A stretch of 63,310 bases of DNA, the filler included, from Folioceros fuciformis (Eukaryota): the NCBI GenBank assembly GCA_049999805.1. It is 22 parts of 22 records of this genome, joined end to end, with 100 filler letters (N's around TTAATTAATTAA, not from the genome) between each part and the next. Parts side by side here need not be neighbours in the genome. Positions count along the whole stretch, not along the records: positions 26,627 to 28,516 come from JBNGIO010002813.1; 21 more parts are not named here. One strand, written 5' to 3'. Positions 26,627 to 60,248 of this stretch are shown here, in pieces. The notes beneath the pieces are model-generated. The model made no database searches, had not been told where the DNA came from, and saw nothing but the letters and a program-made list of their open reading frames with translations. The stretch's first letter is position 1, and each line of letters opens with the position of its first letter. Both the position numbers and the translations under genes were made by a program.

Positions 26627-27652
26627 TACCTAGCAGTCTATGTGGACGATTTGATACTATCCAGTAACAGCCAGGCATTCATAACAAGTATAACTGATGT
26701 ATTGGCCACCAAATTCAAGATGTCCTGTTTAGGCCCCCTACAGAGTTGCCTAGGGATACACATCCAACGGAACAGGAAGACTCGGGTCATGACTCTGACT
26801 CAACCACGTTACCTCTTGGATTGTGTCGAGTAGCTTGGCCTCAAGGATGCTAAGCCTGCATCAACGCCCATGGCAGCGGGTCAGAAACTAAGCAAGACCA
26901 TGTCACCTGTAACTAGAGACGAAAAGGCACAAGTGAAAAACATACCCTATAGACAGGGTGTTGGCAAGTTGATATATGCCAGTAATACAACAAGACCAGG
27001 GATTGCTTACACTACGAGTGTATTGTCACAGTTTCTGGAAAATCCAGGTGTGGAGTACTGGACAAGTCTTAAGCGTGCATTCAAATACCTGAAAGGTACA
27101 TCTAGGCTAGGGATTACGTATAAGCATAAAAAAGGACAGCCCTTGGACCTTGAAGTCTTTACAGACTCGGACTATGCCGGTGATATCGACAACAGAAAGT
27201 CGGTTTTAGGATATGTGATTTCCATAGCAGCAGGTCCAGTGTGTTGGTCAAGCAAAAAGCAACCAACAGTTGCTTTGTCTTCAACGGAAGTAGAATATCG
27301 GGTCCTGACCGCGGCTGCAAAGGAAATCGTTTGGTGTCAGTTGCTATTTAAGGAGCTAGGTATTCAAATACCAACGTGCATCACTATACATATTGACAAT
27401 CAGGGCTCAATGGCCTTGGCAAGAAATCCAGTTCTTCATTCGAGAACGAAGCATGTAGAGGTAGAATACCACTACATACGAGGGCTCGTGAATGAAGGCA
27501 AAATAGATTTACAATAAGTCCCGACGCAGGATAATCCAGCAGACATATTGACGAAAGCCTTAAGCAGAGAATTACACTTTAAGCACATGCAACGTTTGGG
27601 CATAGGAGATGTAGAAGCACACCATCTACTTCTAAAAGCCCGAGGAGACTGA
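26627..27652 (+). mobile_element. Ty1/Copia RT C-terminus and RNase H
   Basis: AVYVDDL, FTDSDYAGD, VALSSTE.EY and HSRTKHVEV motifs; two in-frame stops; ends TGA at 27650-27652. Confidence 0.95.
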
Positions 27653-28400
27653 GTTATCAGAATCAGATATCATGTCTAACACTATCTCAGTTCCAGCCTC
27701 AACAGTGTCAAAGGTAGACTCATCTCTAGTCTTGAAGGAGGCATCGGGCGCCCAGTCTTTGCAAGGCTTCAGGCGGCACAATTCTTTATACTTGGCTTCA
27801 TCACCAGTCGCTCTCGCTTCTTCCAACATCTTCCACTCCTCCCTAATACGCCTAGTGGACTCTGTCCACAGCAAGTGGGAGCAGTCAGTAAAACCACAAG
27901 CAACTTGAAGACAGCAACTTCAGCAGTAGTGAAAAGCAGTGAACGGGGTTTGTAATCTTAATGTACAGACTAACAACATGCCCAGGAAAGCATCTGCAGC
28001 GGAGGACTTTCACTCTCTTCATCGTCAGTTCCTCCGAGTCAACCCAAGCTTTGTACCAGATCGGAGAGCAAGGGAACTCCAGGGTGCCATAGGTCACAAC
28101 CTTCGTCTCTTCACCACGACACTTGGGCTTTGGCAGGCGTACCGGGATGCGGCTCTTGGAGCCGTCACTGTAGTATGCCACATCCAAGTTGAGCACTCTG
28201 GTAAAGGGCAAAACCACGAACTCTTCTTCTTCTACAGGCGGAGGGGGTGGTGATGGCTGTCGCTGAGGCGCAGAGGGACCAACCATGTTGGAAACAGTCT
28301 GCACCACACCGCGTTTGTTGTGCTCCAGAAACTCCTTCGTAGTTCCCAGCGGCCGTCCAGGTTTCCAATCCGCCGTTGTACGAGTTCGCAAAGGAACCTA
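27632..28400 (-). CDS. Antisense accessory gene of a Copia element; exons ~28397-27962 and 27861-27632 (donor mutated to TT)
   Basis: Homologous to 57971-58728. Removing 27961-27862 (branch TACTGAC, acceptor ACAG) fuses the two ORFs in frame. Confidence 0.75.
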
Positions 28401-28616
28401 GTGATCAAGAACAAGAAACAGGTTGAAGCAGCGCACCTCAGCTCAGGAGCTTTCATATAGGTGTCTGTACCAGGCGGTGGCATCTTCACTGGCGATGCTC
28501 ACAGCTGGAACGTAATNNNNNNNNNNNNNNNNNNNNNNNNNNNNNNNNNNNNNNNNNNNNTTAATTAATTAANNNNNNNNNNNNNNNNNNNNNNNNNNNN
28601 NNNNNNNNNNNNNNNN

Positions 28617-55830: not shown

Positions 55831-57779
55831 AGTAGTCTAGGGCTAGGGGCTGTGCTGGCTCAACAGGATGAAGCAGGTTGTGAGCGTGTGGTTGCTTACG
55901 CCTCGCGTAGCAACAATCGAGCTGAAGCCAACTATAGCAGCTACGAGGGTGAATGCCTCGCTGCTGTGTGGGCAGTGTGCCACTTCAGACCATATTTATA
56001 TGGTCAGAAGTTCACACTCGTGACAGACCATCAACCACTCAAGTGGCTGATGACCAACACCAAGCTCAGTGGCAAACTCGCACGTTGGGCCATGATCCTT
56101 CAAGATTACGAATTCCAGGTTGAACATCGGCCAGGAGTGAAGCACCAGAATGCTGATACCTTGTCACGAAATCCTGACAGCAGTTGTGTGGATACCACTG
56201 GAGCTCGCCAAGATGAAGAGTACAGCACAATGCTTGCCGTATCGGCTCTGGTGGCCATGACTTGCTTGGGACAGGTGCCTGTAGATGCAGCTCAGCAATC
56301 CTCCAAGGATATTTGGGAGGATCCAGCTACCCTTCAGTATGTGCAGACAGGTAGAGAGGACCCGACTTGGACCGCGGCCACAAGGGAACGAGTTCACCAA
56401 CGGGCTACCAAGTATTGTTGGCGGGACGGACATCTCATCCGTCAACAGGCTCAAGGAGTGGAGCGATTGGTACCCCCACAGCAGATCCTGCTGCCCTCAT
56501 CAAAAGGGTGCATGATGACATGGGTCATTTTGGGGTCAAACGCACCTACAGCCTGTTGACTCCCTATTTCTACTGGAATCGAATGCATGAACAAGTGAAG
56601 GAACGAGTAGCCTGTTGCGAGCAATGCGACCGTGTCAAGGCTTCCTTCACCATGCAGCACCCAGAGCTGCACCCTTTGCCCATCATGGGTTTATTCTTCA
56701 GATGGTCATGCGACCTGATGGGTGAGCTCCCGCAGTCTCCACGAGGCAACCTGTATGCGATGATCATGATGGAACACTTCAGCAAGTGGGTGGAGGTAGT
56801 GGCCCTGCCAGACAAGACCTCTAGGAGTACCTCACAAGCCTTCCTACAATGTGTGCTCAGTAGGTTTGGTGGCTGCGCAGAGTGTCTCACAGATCAGGGT
56901 TCTGAGTTTCGAGGAGAATTCCAGGATCTAATGGATGCAGCCCTTATTGACCACAGGAGAACTAGCCGGGACCACCCGCAGGCTGATGGCTTAGCCGAGC
57001 GCATGGTCCAGACTATGAAGAAGGGGCTTTGCAAGCTGTGTCTCCGAGAACCCAAAACAGATTGGGATCTCATGCTTCCATATATTGCAATGGGTTACCG
57101 CATGAGCAAGCATGCTGCCCTTGCCCATTTTTCCCCTTACTTCCTCTTGTTTGGCAGAGAACCAATTCCACCTAGTTCTATAGCCAAACAAATGCTAGAA
57201 GTTGTCAAGCTGGATGATGCAGCTACATGGGCACGTGTGATAGGTAACAGGGCAGCCTTGTTCAAACAGGCCATGCCCATGGCAATGGCTAACTTGCACA
57301 TTGCCCAGCATAGGGATACCCTTCATTATGCACACACTAGGGGAGGCAGTTTTAGGCCCAAGCTCAGGAAGTTCCAGGTAGGAGACTTTGTTTACCTGCA
57401 GAGGCAGACCTCAGATGCCCTGGACACTTCTAGCAGTCGGCATGTGTTGCGGATTCAGGAGGTCAAGCCTAATGGCATCCTGGTATTGCAAGGCTCAGAT
57501 GGTCGGATCACCACTGACCACACCAAGAATTGCGCACCTTGCCACTTGCCCAATCTTGATCCTTCTATTGTCACAGCAGATTGGATTCCACCAGCGGACT
57601 ATCCTTGCCAGGTTTGTCAACGCACTGATGATGCTAACCTCATCTTACTTTGTGATGGCTGCAATGGGGGTTTCCACCTTTTCTGCTTACAGCCACCACT
57701 TACCCATGTACCGGAGCAACTTTGGTATTGTCCCAAGTGCCAACCGGACACAGCAGGTGTGACCAACCTAGGAGTGTAG
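55831..57779 (+). mobile_element. Ty3/Gypsy RNase H and integrase with a C-terminal PHD finger; one frameshift near 56480
   Basis: VAYASR, TDHQPLKWL, ADTLSR, HHCC, TDQGSEF and GLAER motifs; C4HC3 CQVC..LLCDGC..FHLFCL..WYCPKC. G-rich PPT-like tract at 57821. Confidence 0.95.
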
Positions 57780-57970
57780 CTCTTATCGTGCTCTTCATGC
57801 TTTCAGCCCGTCCATCAGCTGGGGGGGGAAGGCATGGACAATCTTTTTGTTCTCTTTTTTTTTGAGTGCACAAGACATTAGCCTTGCAGCTGATGGATTG
57901 AATTGAAGTGCTCACAACAGCTGATACCGGGAGCACGACACACCGCCACAACCGTGATGCTCTAGGGTAA

Positions 57971-58728
57971 TTCGCGCCAAGGACAACTACCAAAGATATA
58001 AAGCCGAAGCTTGATGCTGTCAGCACAAAGAAGAAGGTTGGGCGGCCGCAAGGAACAACGAAAGGCTTTCTGGAGCGGCGCAAGCTTGACGCGCTACGGG
58101 TTGAAGCCAACATGGCTGGTCCTTCCATCAATCAGCGGCGATCATCAACTCCTCAGGAATGAGAGGAGAAGGAGGAGGTTACGCCCTACATCAGGGTGCT
58201 GAACCTGGATGTCTCATATTACAGCAACAGCTGCAAGAGCCGTGTGCCTATGAAGCTTCCGGAACCCATCAGCTACGATGAAGAAACTCTGATTGTGATC
58301 TGTGGCACACGTGAGTTTCCATGTTCTCCAATCTGGTACAAAGCTTGGGTTGGTCTTGATGAGCTAACTATGAAGAGGGTGAAGGTTCTTTGCTGCAGAT
58401 GCTTCGCTGGACACGTCGTCAGTGTGTACAGTAAGTGTCTGCTCCCTCTTTTAGCTGCTGTTGCTGTTTCTTGTTCTTGACAATTGTTTATATCTCCCAC
58501 TTGTTGGGTGCAGAGTCCACAAAGAAGATTAAGGAGGAAAGGAGGCTGGAGGATGAAGAGAAGGCTTTCGATTCTGGAGTGAAGCCACACCAAGAAGATC
58601 CGTCACCCGACACTGATTCCAAGACTGATACTGAAGATGAGTCAACTCACGATGTTTTAAAGTCAGGAGTTGGCATAGAGATTCAGGACATTATTGATTC
58701 TGATTACTCTAACTCCTCGGGCTTTTAG
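57971..58728 (+). CDS. Antisense accessory gene of a Copia element; exons ~57971-58430 and 58514-58728, one premature stop at 58160
   Basis: A GTAAGT...GTGCAG 83-nt intron restores the frame. About 70% identical to the 27632-28400 gene in the core domain. Confidence 0.78.
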
Positions 58729-58740
58729 GAATATTGTGTG

Positions 58741-60248
58741 TTACTCTGAACTGGATAGGAGAGCTTCTGCCTCTCCCATTCCCAAACGCTGTATATGCTT
58801 GTGATGAGCTTCTTTGCTCAAAACCTTTGTTAGTATGTCCGCTGAGTTGTCCTGTGTCGGAACATATTGCAAATCAATTTTCCCTTCCGTCACAAGCCCC
58901 CTTATATAGTGGTATTCAACCTCCACATGTTTTGTACGTACGTGAAACACTGGATTTCTTGCTAATGCCATTGAGCCCTGATTGTCTGTGTGGATTGTTG
59001 TGCAAGTAGGTATCTAAATTCCTAATTCCTTGAACAAAAGCTTACACCATACTATTTCTTTGGCTGCTGCTGTCAGGACCTGGTACTCTGCCTCTGTTGA
59101 AGAAAGAGCAACCATTGGTTGCTTCTTACTAGACCAGCATACAGGCCCTCCAGCAATTGAAATGACATAGCTTGAAACTGATTTTCTACTGTCTATGTCT
59201 CTTGCATAGTCTGCGTCTGTAAATACCTCAAGATCTAGAGGATTTCCTTTTTTATTCTTATAAGCTATGCCAATTTTTGCTGTGCCTTTCAAGTAACGGA
59301 AGGCACGTTTCAAGTTTGTCCAGTGTTCTTTCCCGGGGTTTTCCAAGAACTGTGAGAGCACACTGGTGGTATATGCAACTTCTAGTCTTGTAGTATTGCT
59401 TGCATATATCAGTTTGCGTACACCTTGCTTGTAAGGAACTCCTGTCATTTGCTCCTTGTCTTCTTGAGTTGAAGGTGACATGAGCTTGCTAAGTTTCTGA
59501 CCAATGGCATAGGTGTTGATACAGGTTTTGCATCCTTAAGACCTAGTTGCTGAGCACAATCTAAAAGGTAACGGGGTTGTGTTAGTGTCATTACGCGAGT
59601 CTGCCTATTTCTTTGAACATGAATTCCTAGACAGCTCTGTAAGGGTCCTAGGCAATTCATTCTGAATTTTGTTGCTAACACATCTGTTATACTTGTGATG
59701 AAGGTCTGACTATTGCTTGATAAAATTAGGTCATCAACGTAAACTGCCAAGTAGCATATGACATTCCCTTTGAGGTAAATATACAAGCTACTATTTGCTT
59801 GACTCTTAGTGCCTCCTCATATGATTGAGGTTCAATGAGATCAAGGGAAAAATTATCAGCATGAACTGCCACATGAGAAGAAGGATTCCTGAAGTCTGGA
59901 GCTTGGTAAAGGTCTGGAGGCTGCTTATGACGAGTAGAATACCGCTGGACTGGTTCGGCAGGCAAAACTTGATGATCATACTGAAGGTCAGCTGCATTCT
60001 CATTTTCAACTGGGTCAATTTGGTCAACTGGTTCTGCTTGTTCTGGTACAACTTGTTCAGGAGGAGGTTGGTCCTATAAATCCAGGTCAGGTGCATTGAT
60101 ATGTGCAGGTTCTGAAGTTGCTATGTCCTCAACATCAACCAGCTCAAAACCAGCTGCTGGATCTTGCCCACCTGCAGGAACAATGTCCTCCATAGGAACA
60201 ACCTGTGTGCTATGATCGGATTGATCAAAAGAAGTGTCATCATCCATT
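58741..60248 (-). mobile_element. Ty1/Copia RT end and RNase H, with an internal deletion of most of RT near 59790
   Basis: EPQSYEEAL is joined almost directly to YLAVYVDDL. FTDADYA, SSTEAEY and FHVRTKHVEV motifs. Related to 26627-27652. Confidence 0.93.

Follow-up and report, generated by a model that had tools for sequence, protein, structure and literature searches.

Antisense open reading frames (ORFs) located between pol and the 3' LTR have been described in LTR retrotransposons, and some of them encode nuclear proteins, as set out in parts of two papers (PMC7264820, PMC11963269). The examples of this "aORF-3R" arrangement given in those parts are gene23 of maize Grande, rice RIRE2, Silene Retand (TRP28-domain ORFs), ORF2 of Phaseolus PvRetro13, and brtn of Botrytis Boty (PMC7264820, PMC11963269). 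Antisense accessory genes have been well studied in deltaretroviruses and are functionally obscure in LTR retrotransposons, in which few cases have been described, mostly in plant Ty3/gypsy elements. The named aORF-3R examples likewise belong mostly to the Ty3/gypsy type. In HBZ, the antisense gene of HTLV-1, the spliced form has an upstream exon towards or in the 3' LTR. An antisense intron is also the trick used in retrotransposition reporter genes.

In this study, we analyzed a window of 63,310 nucleotides, i.e., the whole stretch of DNA made up of 22 joined parts of a Folioceros fuciformis assembly (GCA_049999805.1). The preliminary description of this DNA had reported a second copy of an antisense gene. 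This was borne out by tblastn of both exons against the whole window, which placed the gene at two loci only (other matches all E >= 2), and by the matching exon and intron layout of the two loci, hereafter copies A and B. Our best explanation, with a probability of about 0.68, is that a small antisense accessory gene of a Ty1/copia LTR retrotransposon lineage, situated directly behind pol, is present at the locus in decayed form. The host of this copia lineage is probably a green alga. The features of the two copies are as follows.

26627-28516: contig carrying copy A (1,890 bases), ending 119 bases upstream of exon 1
26627..27631, plus strand: 3' part of Ty1/copia pol, copy A (end of RT, then RNase H; RVT_2 match), convergent with the antisense gene
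27632..27634, minus strand: stop codon TAG of the antisense gene, copy A
27635..27861, minus strand: exon 2, copy A (two bases finishing the Lys codon, then 75 codons)
27862..27961, minus strand: intron-like stretch, copy A (100 bases, TTAAGA...TACTGAC...CAG)
28397-27962, minus strand: exon 1, the main coding exon, copy A (145 codons and the first base of the split Lys codon)
28272..28289, minus strand: N-M-V-G-P-S, copy A, holding the sole conserved in-frame ATG (28286-28284)
28323..28364, minus strand: motif K-P-G-R-P-L-G-T-T-K-E-F-L-E, copy A, AT-hook-like but not the canonical RGRP
28398..28400, minus strand: in-frame TAG just upstream of exon 1, copy A, doubling as the AG of an acceptor-like CACTAG/G after a pyrimidine tract
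28405..28421, minus strand: pyrimidine tract CTGTTTCTTGTTCTTGA, the same as 17 bases within the copy B intron (17/17, E 0.002)
57971..58430, plus strand: main exon, copy B, with an in-frame TGA at 58160-58162 and a TAA just before the exon, at 57968-57970
58431..58513, plus strand: intron, copy B (83 bases, GTAAGT...TTGAC...CAG)
58514..58728, plus strand: exon 2 with stop codon TAG (58726-58728), copy B
58741..60248, minus strand: 3' part of copia pol, copy B (RVT_2 match)

Re-reading of the DNA reproduced all coordinates and letters previously given for copy A. The whole antisense gene spans ~0.77 kb, and the predicted protein of ~220 aa is a small candidate for a nuclear or DNA-binding role. 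Exon 1 of copy A encodes a basic N-terminal part, where the GRP motif is found, and a conserved core of ~90 aa, connected by a Pro/Ser linker. The core residues C110, C134, C136, and H140 are invariant, and a Cys3-His metal site is possible in this core. Exon 2 of copy A starts with the charged sequence STRRIREE and has an acidic Ser/Asp tail ending in DSDNSVSSGF. The charge pattern is split along the protein, with a pI of about 11 for the N-terminal part and of 4.3-4.7 for exon 2.

The gene resembles the aORF-3R ORFs, as portrayed in parts of their sources, in its position behind pol, its opposite orientation, the conservation of its protein in diverged copies, and the lack of clear relatives in databases; it may likewise be suspected of a nuclear or DNA-binding role (PMC7264820, PMC11963269). 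In contrast to them, it accompanies a copia-type RT (RVT_2) in what is probably a green alga, as opposed to a flowering plant or a fungus, with a pol-gene spacer of 11-12 bases, a size below one kilobase instead of kilobases, and a conserved spliceosomal-type intron. No sequence similarity links it to the aORF-3R ORFs, and no match to TRP28 (PF04195) or another Pfam family was obtained. Similar to HBZ and the other deltaretrovirus antisense genes, as covered in parts of the same papers, it would be antisense, spliced, and protein-coding and lie at the 3' end of its retroelement, here as predicted from sequence (PMC7264820, PMC11963269). However, it has no bZIP or any Pfam domain and no sequence relationship to HBZ, and both the host and the element class are different.

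Exon 1 of the two copies was 61% identical over 134 aa (tblastn, E 5e-49), with pS of 0.70, pN of 0.22, and dN/dS of 0.125. In the 79-codon core, the differences at the first, second, and third codon positions numbered 16, 11, and 39 (pN/pS 0.23), and the remaining two frames had 7 stops apiece. By these measures, exon 1 is under strong purifying selection between the copies, and for this reason we consider that the gene was real. Exon 2 was 38% identical over 78 aa (tblastn, E 3e-8), and its dN/dS of 0.63 indicates weak constraint. Taken by themselves, the 26 codons preceding the conserved Met had a weak coding signal (pN/pS 0.61), and 6 of the 10 differences in the 14-codon N-terminal motif were at third positions, as counted by eye; this motif appears to be conserved and coding. 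The shared N-terminal motifs proposed earlier, KPGRPLGTTKEFLE / KVGRPQGTTKGFLE and NMVGPS / NMAGPS, were both found. In copy B, the in-frame TGA separates the GRP motif from the core; it was unmentioned in the preliminary description, as was the TAA at 57968-57970.

On the gene strand of copy A, exon 1 ends with ...GTT AGT CTG TAC A at 27962, followed by TTAAGA (27961-27956), and TACTGAC lies 23 bases before CAG (27864-27862). Without 27961-27862 (100 bases), copy A reads ...VSLY-K-STRRIREE, and without 58431-58513 (83 bases), copy B reads ...VSVY-K-STKKIKEE. Both gaps split the same codon after its first base, in agreement with the intron position claimed for the two copies, and the donor dinucleotide is TT in copy A versus GT in copy B, so that the description of a dead donor holds. 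The branch site and the acceptor had also been described as kept; TACTGAC and CAG are present in copy A, but TACTGAC is not common to copy B, which has TTGAC 33 bases before CAG in its place. The spacer (100 versus 83 bases) contains stops in all three frames, its last 20 bases are conserved, and its sixth base is A in copy A versus T in copy B. All four features of a U2-type GT-AG intron were found in copy B (GTAAGT, CAG, TTGAC, and a restored frame); in copy A, the donor fails (TT), CAG and CTGAC are present, and removal restores the frame. As read from these features, this is a gene with at least two coding exons and a short spliceosomal-type intron.

The change of the copy A donor from GT to TT would abolish normal U2-type splicing. 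A G>T change after insertion, as proposed in the preliminary description, would be one possible origin of the TT. In the unspliced frame, a stop codon is found at 27887-27885, and copy A is regarded as a pseudogene because an unspliced message would end there, after 25 codons of intron sequence. GTACAT, located five bases upstream of the dead donor, was considered as a cryptic donor and rejected, since splicing from it would shift the frame and lead to an early stop codon. With respect to the genomic RNA of the element, the intron is on the opposite strand and would stay in that RNA; since it would not be removed, it should be copied faithfully at each retrotransposition, and this orientation may explain how a retroelement-borne gene keeps an intron. 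The strand of the intron also implies that the gene would be transcribed from its own antisense promoter. The conserved intron may be a natural counterpart of the reporter antisense intron, inherited via the element RNA and expressed from the other strand.

The RVT_2 and RNase H region is on the strand opposite to the antisense gene in both contigs, and the gene is present in both of the window contigs (2/2) that hold the pol 3' end of this copia lineage. The pol of copy A has in-frame stops at 26831-26833 and 27515-27517 and is without 20 bases behind 27620 that contigs from the sequencing runs have, and that of copy B is disrupted both by a stop codon in frame (59014-59016) and by a shift of frame. 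The two pol parts share 79-81% amino acid identity and 73% DNA identity, and the A/B alignment passes unbroken through both stop codons. The distance from the pol stop to the antisense stop amounts to 12 bases for copy B; for copy A, it is 11 bases if the 20 bases of the run contigs are counted. Of these 20 letters, 19 are as in the pol end of copy B, including its stop (compared by eye). The gene, the intron position, and the pol junction have thus been kept in two lineages in which pol DNA is only 73% identical, and it is this conserved linkage that would place the gene inside the element. Neither a 3' LTR nor a polypurine tract or a target-site duplication was established in the window, in which the copy A contig ends shortly upstream of exon 1. 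In copy B, there is no room for a normal LTR because a complete gypsy integrase-PHD ORF on the same strand ends ~190 bases upstream.

Near-identical contigs from sequencing runs X1 and X2 differ from the window contig at ~1.2% of bases. They have sense codons at the pol stops of the window (26831 T>C, 27517 A>T) as well as the 20 extra bases, and a CAG>TAG nonsense change at 28265 in the antisense gene. The antisense gene might therefore be dispensable, given a pol intact at these sites together with a gene carrying a nonsense codon. Both contigs cover the donor, and no difference at 27961-27960 was seen among the eight that are listed of their nine differences. Additionally, diverged run contigs (81-86% alike, three records) cover 27957-28217, and a 1,450-base contig of run X4 has a 37-base match to the stretch that keeps the GRP motif; its flanks, translated by hand, continue in the same frame with residues resembling copy B. 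The run contigs thus contain at least one further diverged copy, plus one in X4. Among the runs listed as carrying the stretch, none was given as RNA; X4 may be of this kind. The lesions in both visible copies fit the ordinary decay of dead transposon copies.

The GRP motif is kept in other copies, as K-x-GRP in copy B and in the third member (X4). Its relation to the AT-hook is one of resemblance. The defining core of the AT-hook is Arg-Gly-Arg-Pro, according to the part of the source that defines it (PMC11169806). As in the AT-hook proteins HMGA and plant AHL, at the level of detail of that part, a basic segment contains a G-R-P core with x-G-(S/T)-x-K behind it (PMC11169806), and the GRP-x-G-T-x-K tail recalls the type-I hook RGRP-x-GSKNK. 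In contrast, each of the three members seen has Pro or Val in place of the first Arg of RGRP (K-P-G-R-P in A, K-V-G-R-P in B, and K-V before the motif in the X4 member), and there is a single motif only. None of the four exon pieces of the two copies matched AT_hook (PF02178) or any Pfam family at E up to 1. We also considered a SUMO-interacting motif in the C-terminal tail (A, EIVLDMISDSDNS; B, IEIQDIIDSDYS). Such motifs have the form hXhh or hhXh (h = I, V, or L) with acidic or phosphorylatable flanks, as defined in part of one source (PMC8616421). The tails have the acidic/Ser flank but no strict hXhh or hhXh, and the candidate was rejected. Composition and motifs suggest, with low confidence, a nuclear protein acting on DNA or chromatin and modulating the expression or integration of the element, a role that has also been proposed for antisense accessory genes in other retroelements.

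Searches for relatives found none in the collections covered. A word-indexed protein search with exon 1 gave nine candidates, none at E up to 0.01. A two-copy HMMER profile against 1.84 billion representative proteins gave two matches, both repetitive and rejected as spurious; each consisted of 4-6 short stretches, and one resembled repeated topoisomerase II pieces. The best match in the PDB sequence search had an E of 0.13, and Rfam had no match in the window. Cystine-knot clusters of the ESM Atlas scored at best 0.76 for the whole exon and 0.83 for the core, below the level of 0.9 that is often reached by chance, and were also discarded. Pattern searches returned 103 matches in metagenome_contigs and 43 in viral_contigs, with none confirmed as relatives. 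An AlphaFold2 model of exon 1 from a two-row alignment was unusable (mean pLDDT 41, pTM 0.22). Among the open-access papers searched, queries on antisense ORFs of copia elements or of elements from algae retrieved general reviews and no account of the gene. On the best reading of these results, the gene is an orphan that was previously undescribed. In terms of annotation, such genes are missed entirely, given that none of the predicted proteins searched is a match.

Several other explanations were weighed against that of an antisense accessory gene. It is distinctly unlikely that the locus is a host gene or gene fragment transduced by copia, or a cellular gene beside copia fragments, without a role in the life cycle of the element. 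Some extra ORFs do arise by transduction, as stated in part of a review of such genes (PMC7264820), the gene is not placed within the element by any LTR found, and the run contigs combine sense codons at the pol lesion sites with a nonsense codon in the gene. However, transduced genes are typically limited to one or a few copies, and here the gene-pol junction has been kept in two diverged lineages with exon 1 under purifying selection. Moreover, no cellular homologue was detected in the protein, metagenome, or viral collections searched, and sense capture via an RNA intermediate would have removed the intron. We consider it quite improbable that the gene acts through its antisense RNA, e.g., as dsRNA with the element transcript feeding silencing, the ORF being incidental. 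Such a possibility has been raised for retrotransposon antisense transcription in part of the same source (PMC7264820), and the 3' end of the gene within 12 bases of pol would allow read-through to yield complementary RNA; the excess of third-position and synonymous differences in exon 1 nevertheless shows selection on the protein sequence.

With respect to the interruption, the TT donor might be an error or a strain-specific change in a low-quality contig, with normal splicing at the real locus. The window contig is indeed ~1.2% off the X1 and X2 contigs, three of the differences are lesions disabling pol (the two stop sites and the 20 missing bases), and one of the nine differences in the donor-covering X2 contig was not listed. 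On balance this is improbable, as the other eight differences are placed elsewhere, none is listed at 27961-27960 even though both contigs span the site, and a donor difference would have had support like that of the rows listed; the differing sixth intron base (A versus T) also fits decay. The least probable explanation is that the interruption is not an intron and separates two ORFs or is the variable spacer of a frameshifted relic, in line with the absence of GT in copy A and with splicing being predicted here from sequence. Against it, GTAAGT and CAG of copy B sit exactly where joining restores the conserved frame, the same codon is interrupted in the same phase in both copies, and the spacer, which varies in length and is closed by stops in every frame, shows its conservation mainly at either end.

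If an antisense accessory gene is the correct reading, such genes would be extended to further hosts and elements by the present one, which is compact, contains an intron, is constrained at the protein level, and belongs to a copia lineage of a probable green alga. A doubtful but more specific scenario is that a copia lineage of a green alga independently evolved an HBZ-like spliced antisense regulatory gene, with its first exon and promoter in the 3' LTR; the first antisense intron would use the complement of the polypurine tract as its polypyrimidine tract. The encoded protein, combining a GRP hook and a Cys3-His core with an acidic tail, would be nuclear, bind DNA or chromatin, and control the silencing or integration of the element.

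A further upstream exon is plausible. As had been noted for copy A, no start ATG precedes the conserved motif in frame, and in each copy the conserved frame directly follows an in-frame stop. A pyrimidine tract and CACTAG/G in copy A resemble an acceptor, and if the suspected exon exists, it would be located towards or in the 3' LTR, as in spliced HBZ. Among the GT sites in the 119 bases upstream of exon 1 of copy A, none joins an ATG in frame, and a 45-base mini-intron (GTGCGC...CACTAG) linking an ATG at 28481 to the exon was rejected because of the wrong frame. The upstream regions of copies A and B showed no significant likeness (351 of 500 shuffles reached the observed score), and no second copy of either was found within the window. 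On the copia sense strand, the CTGTTTCTTGTTCTTGA tract would be purine-rich and polypurine-tract-like, followed by T/TG. The unitigs of the sequencing runs break at 28399. Purine-rich tracts followed by T/TG on the copia strand are candidates for a polypurine tract.

Alignment of the two copies of the antisense gene, a two-exon accessory gene placed tail to tail with a Ty1/copia pol, establishes at the level of sequence a constrained antisense gene, an intron-like interruption kept in position, fixation of the gene to the 3' end of copia pol, and a donor-less, decayed copy at the locus under study (copy A). The layout of copy A was correct as written in the preliminary description, in coordinates and in letters, and the diverged second copy (copy B) has the same intron position, removal of the gap giving VSLY-K-STRRIREE in copy A and VSVY-K-STKKIKEE in copy B. 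The N-terminal strings quoted there are also present in both copies. Additional to that description are in-frame TGA (58160-58162) and TAA (57968-57970) codons in copy B, and the end of contig A only 119 bases upstream of exon 1. The features are as follows:

26627-28516: contig A, 1,890 bases, holding copy A
28400-28398, minus strand: in-frame TAG directly before the frame of copy A
28397 to 27962, minus strand: exon 1 frame of copy A
27864-27862, minus strand: CAG closing the intron-like gap of copy A, which reads TTAAGA, TACTGAC, then CAG
27861 to the stop at 27634-27632, minus strand: exon 2 frame of copy A
55831-60248: contig B, holding copy B
58431-58513: interruption of copy B, 83 bases, GTAAGT...CAG, after the first base of the same codon as in copy A
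56355-57779, plus strand: Ty3/gypsy integrase with a C-terminal PHD finger (PF17921, PF00665, PF00628)

The antisense gene is protein-coding and was selected for most of the time separating copies A and B. Exactly two loci in the window were matched by both exons in tblastn searches, everything else having E >= 2, and the copies shared 61% identity over 134 amino acids in exon 1 and 38% over 78 amino acids in exon 2. Synonymous sites of exon 1 were nearly saturated (pS 0.70), with pN 0.22 and a dN/dS of 0.125; in a 79-codon core the differences fell 16/11/39 by codon position, and each of the other two frames contained 7 stops. Exon 2 was weakly constrained (dN/dS 0.63), with its start (ST-basic-basic-I-basic-EE) and its end (DSD-x-S-x-SSGF-stop) kept in both copies.

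The interruption has what appear to be the properties of a short spliceosomal intron, given its canonical ends in copy B, its differing length (100 bases in copy A and 83 in copy B), stops in every frame, and conservation confined mainly to the first five and last 20 bases. The branch site and acceptor proposed earlier, TACTGAC and CAG, are present in copy A, but TACTGAC is not common to copy B, where TTGAC, 33 bases ahead of the CAG, is the best candidate branch site. The dead donor was confirmed, with TT in copy A versus GT in copy B; the sixth intron base also differs between them. The proposed G>T change may have arisen before or after insertion. A cryptic GTACAT five bases upstream of the copy A donor would cause a frameshift into an early stop. 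Copy A is a pseudogene, incapable of making the full protein.

Matches to RVT_2 (copia-type reverse transcriptase) lie on the strand opposite the gene in both contigs, the pol parts share 79-81% identity in protein and 73% in DNA, and the DNA alignment passes from the gene across both stop codons and on into pol with no break. The spacing between the stops of gene and pol is 12 bases for copy B; for copy A it is 11, counting 20 extra bases found in run contigs. The gene is therefore tied to this copia lineage rather than to a chromosomal site. No LTR was identified around either copy within the window contigs. Candidate polypurine tracts are two purine-rich stretches of the copia strand, each with T|TG behind it, at 28405-28421 (copy A) and at the complement of 57843-57865 (copy B). 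At copy B, the gypsy integrase-PHD ORF, complete at its C-terminus against P0123 and on the same strand as the gene, ends approximately 190 bases upstream, which leaves no room for a normal LTR; copy B is truncated, rearranged, or mis-assembled.

The window consists of 22 short contigs chained by 21 identical 100-base linkers, N44-TTAATTAATTAA-N44 (e.g., 28517-28616), with 42 N44 runs, and most contigs contain pieces of Ty1/copia or Ty3/gypsy retrotransposons. It is a bin of unplaced repeat contigs, and adjacency across a linker is meaningless. The closest named relatives of the gypsy integrase-PHD ORF are from the green alga Haematococcus lacustris (45-46% identity), and one unnamed environmental protein has 71% identity. 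Because of these Haematococcus relatives, the host is probably a green alga, judging from one transposon protein. The integrase-PHD layout is common to many relatives in the protein collection, some of which add a cytosine DNA methylase domain (PF00145).

The N-terminal block K-x-G-R-P-x-G-T-T-K-x-F-L-E spans 14 codons (42 bases) and, counted by eye, has 10 differences between the two copies, including 6 at third positions. Contigs of four public runs under the same species label (X1 to X4) were aligned to contig A at 80% likeness, and one of 1,450 bases at depth 83 from X4, possibly an RNA run, matched only 28323-28359 with 6 differences. In a hand translation of its reverse complement, in frame with the gene, AVTAITKPKV preceded the motif and KRKLAALKTE followed it, against DAVSTKKKV and RRKLDALRVE in copy B; a third member thus retains both motif and frame and supports the motif independently. 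The suggested AT-hook is a resemblance only. GRP-x-G-T-T-K recalls the type-I hook RGRP-x-GSKNK, a real but partial likeness, and the hook is defined by an Arg-Gly-Arg-Pro core (PMC11169806), of which the first position here is Pro or Val instead of Arg, so that the defining core is absent. The motif had no Pfam match at E up to 1.

Copies A and B each have an in-frame stop directly before the conserved frame, the residues just after it are still alike (PLRTRTTAD in copy A, PRTTTKD in copy B), and no in-frame ATG precedes the motif, as had been noted for copy A. The copy A stop forms the AG of CACTAG|G behind a pyrimidine tract, an arrangement resembling an acceptor, and it is precisely here that the run unitigs break. 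Seventeen bases of this tract are identical between 28405-28421, upstream of copy A, and 58464-58480, in the intron of copy B (E 0.002); the string could be a splice signal common to both, the complement of a polypurine tract, or a low-complexity chance match. Farther upstream, similarity between the copies is not significant, the observed local score being reached in 351 of 500 shuffles, and none of the 7 GT sites in the 119 upstream bases of copy A joins an ATG in frame. These features are most simply explained by a putative exon further upstream. If translation began at the conserved Met, the motif would lie in untranslated sequence despite its conservation, which accords less well with the third-position pattern. 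Taken as a whole, the 26 codons before that Met show a weak signal of coding (pN/pS 0.61).

No relative of the antisense gene was found in Pfam, a word-indexed protein search, a PDB sequence search, or scans of metagenome and viral contigs, and none was accepted from the ESM Atlas (scores 0.76 and 0.83). An exhaustive profile search of 1.84 billion representatives gave two matches, both spurious repeat proteins, and the AlphaFold model was unusable (mean pLDDT 41). With a pI of ~11 the N-terminal part is basic; exon 2, at pI 4.3-4.7, is acidic. C110, C134, C136, and H140 are invariant between the copies and would fit a small metal site, a comparison of two sequences that proves little. The C-terminal tail kept in both copies (27635-27690, 58670-58725) has hydrophobic residues before its DSD ending and many casein-kinase-type Ser/Asp sites. 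In its acidic Ser/Asp character the tail resembles the region flanking a SUMO-interacting motif; such a motif was rejected, since the aliphatic core is neither hXhh nor hhXh, the consensus given in PMC8616421, in either copy.

The intron would survive retrotransposition because the genomic RNA is complementary to the strand that carries it, in which case the gene must have an antisense promoter of its own, probably in or near the 3' LTR. The charge pattern, the hook-like motif, and parallels to HBZ and Grande gene23 drawn from PMC7264820 and PMC11963269 tentatively suggest that the product is nuclear, contacts DNA or chromatin, and adjusts expression or integration of the element (probability roughly 0.3). 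Additional antisense ORFs located between pol and the 3' LTR are known from Grande, RIRE2, Retand, PvRetro13, and Boty (PMC7264820), and their proteins, as here, are without database relatives. This kind of arrangement is already known; the present case is set apart by its copia-type element, probable algal host, conserved intron, and very compact gene abutting pol. No description of such a gene was found in the open-access texts searched.

X1 and X2 come from one sample, and their near-identical contigs cover the copy A donor: X1 record 5 (27377-28399) has 13 differences plus a 20-base insertion, and X2 record 13 (27673-28399) has 9 differences, 8 of which could be placed:

27845: att>atc, silent
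28014: aga>agg, silent
28210: ttg>tcg, Leu>Ser
28241: ccg>gcg, Pro>Ala
28265: cag>tag, nonsense in the antisense gene
28282: gtt>gct, Val>Ala, as in copy B
28321: cac>cgc, His>Arg, as in copy B
28338: acg>acc, silent

Since none of these 8 lies at 27961-27960, the TT donor is probably shared by the near-identical run contigs. The X1 and X2 contigs are ~99% identical to contig A and lack three pol lesions of the window version:

26831: T>C in run contigs, in-frame stop to Gln codon, as in copy B
27517: A>T in run contigs, TAA to TAT (Tyr), as in copy B
behind 27620: 20 more bases in run contigs, carrying the pol stop

These 20 bases equal the reverse complement of the copy B pol end in 19 letters. 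Contig A may therefore be either a more decayed allele or copy, or error-bearing. In the run version, the antisense gene is itself broken by the CAG>TAG change at 28265. This change and the TGA of copy B lie within ~10 codons of each other, both independent and C>T-like; the linker they hit, which joins the GRP motif to the core, is poorly conserved, and their near-coincidence is probably chance decay.

Diverged sister contigs (records 7, 8, and 14), 81-86% alike, cover 27957-28217. A sister contig of 591 bases, in X1 and X2, aligns over 27957-28099 and then over ~34 bases ending near 27632, skipping 291 bases (27665-27957); the sum 265 + 291 + 35 = 591 would fit an equally long, unalignable intron followed by exon 2 better than it fits a deletion. 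Run X3 looks bisulfite-converted, with 213 C>T and 127 G>A places over 26627-28516. Its contigs differ by 31 letters against 44 C in the reference over 26843-27051, and by 157 letters against 212 G over 27409-28301. Some cytosines thus seem unconverted, a hint that the DNA of this transposon is partly methylated.
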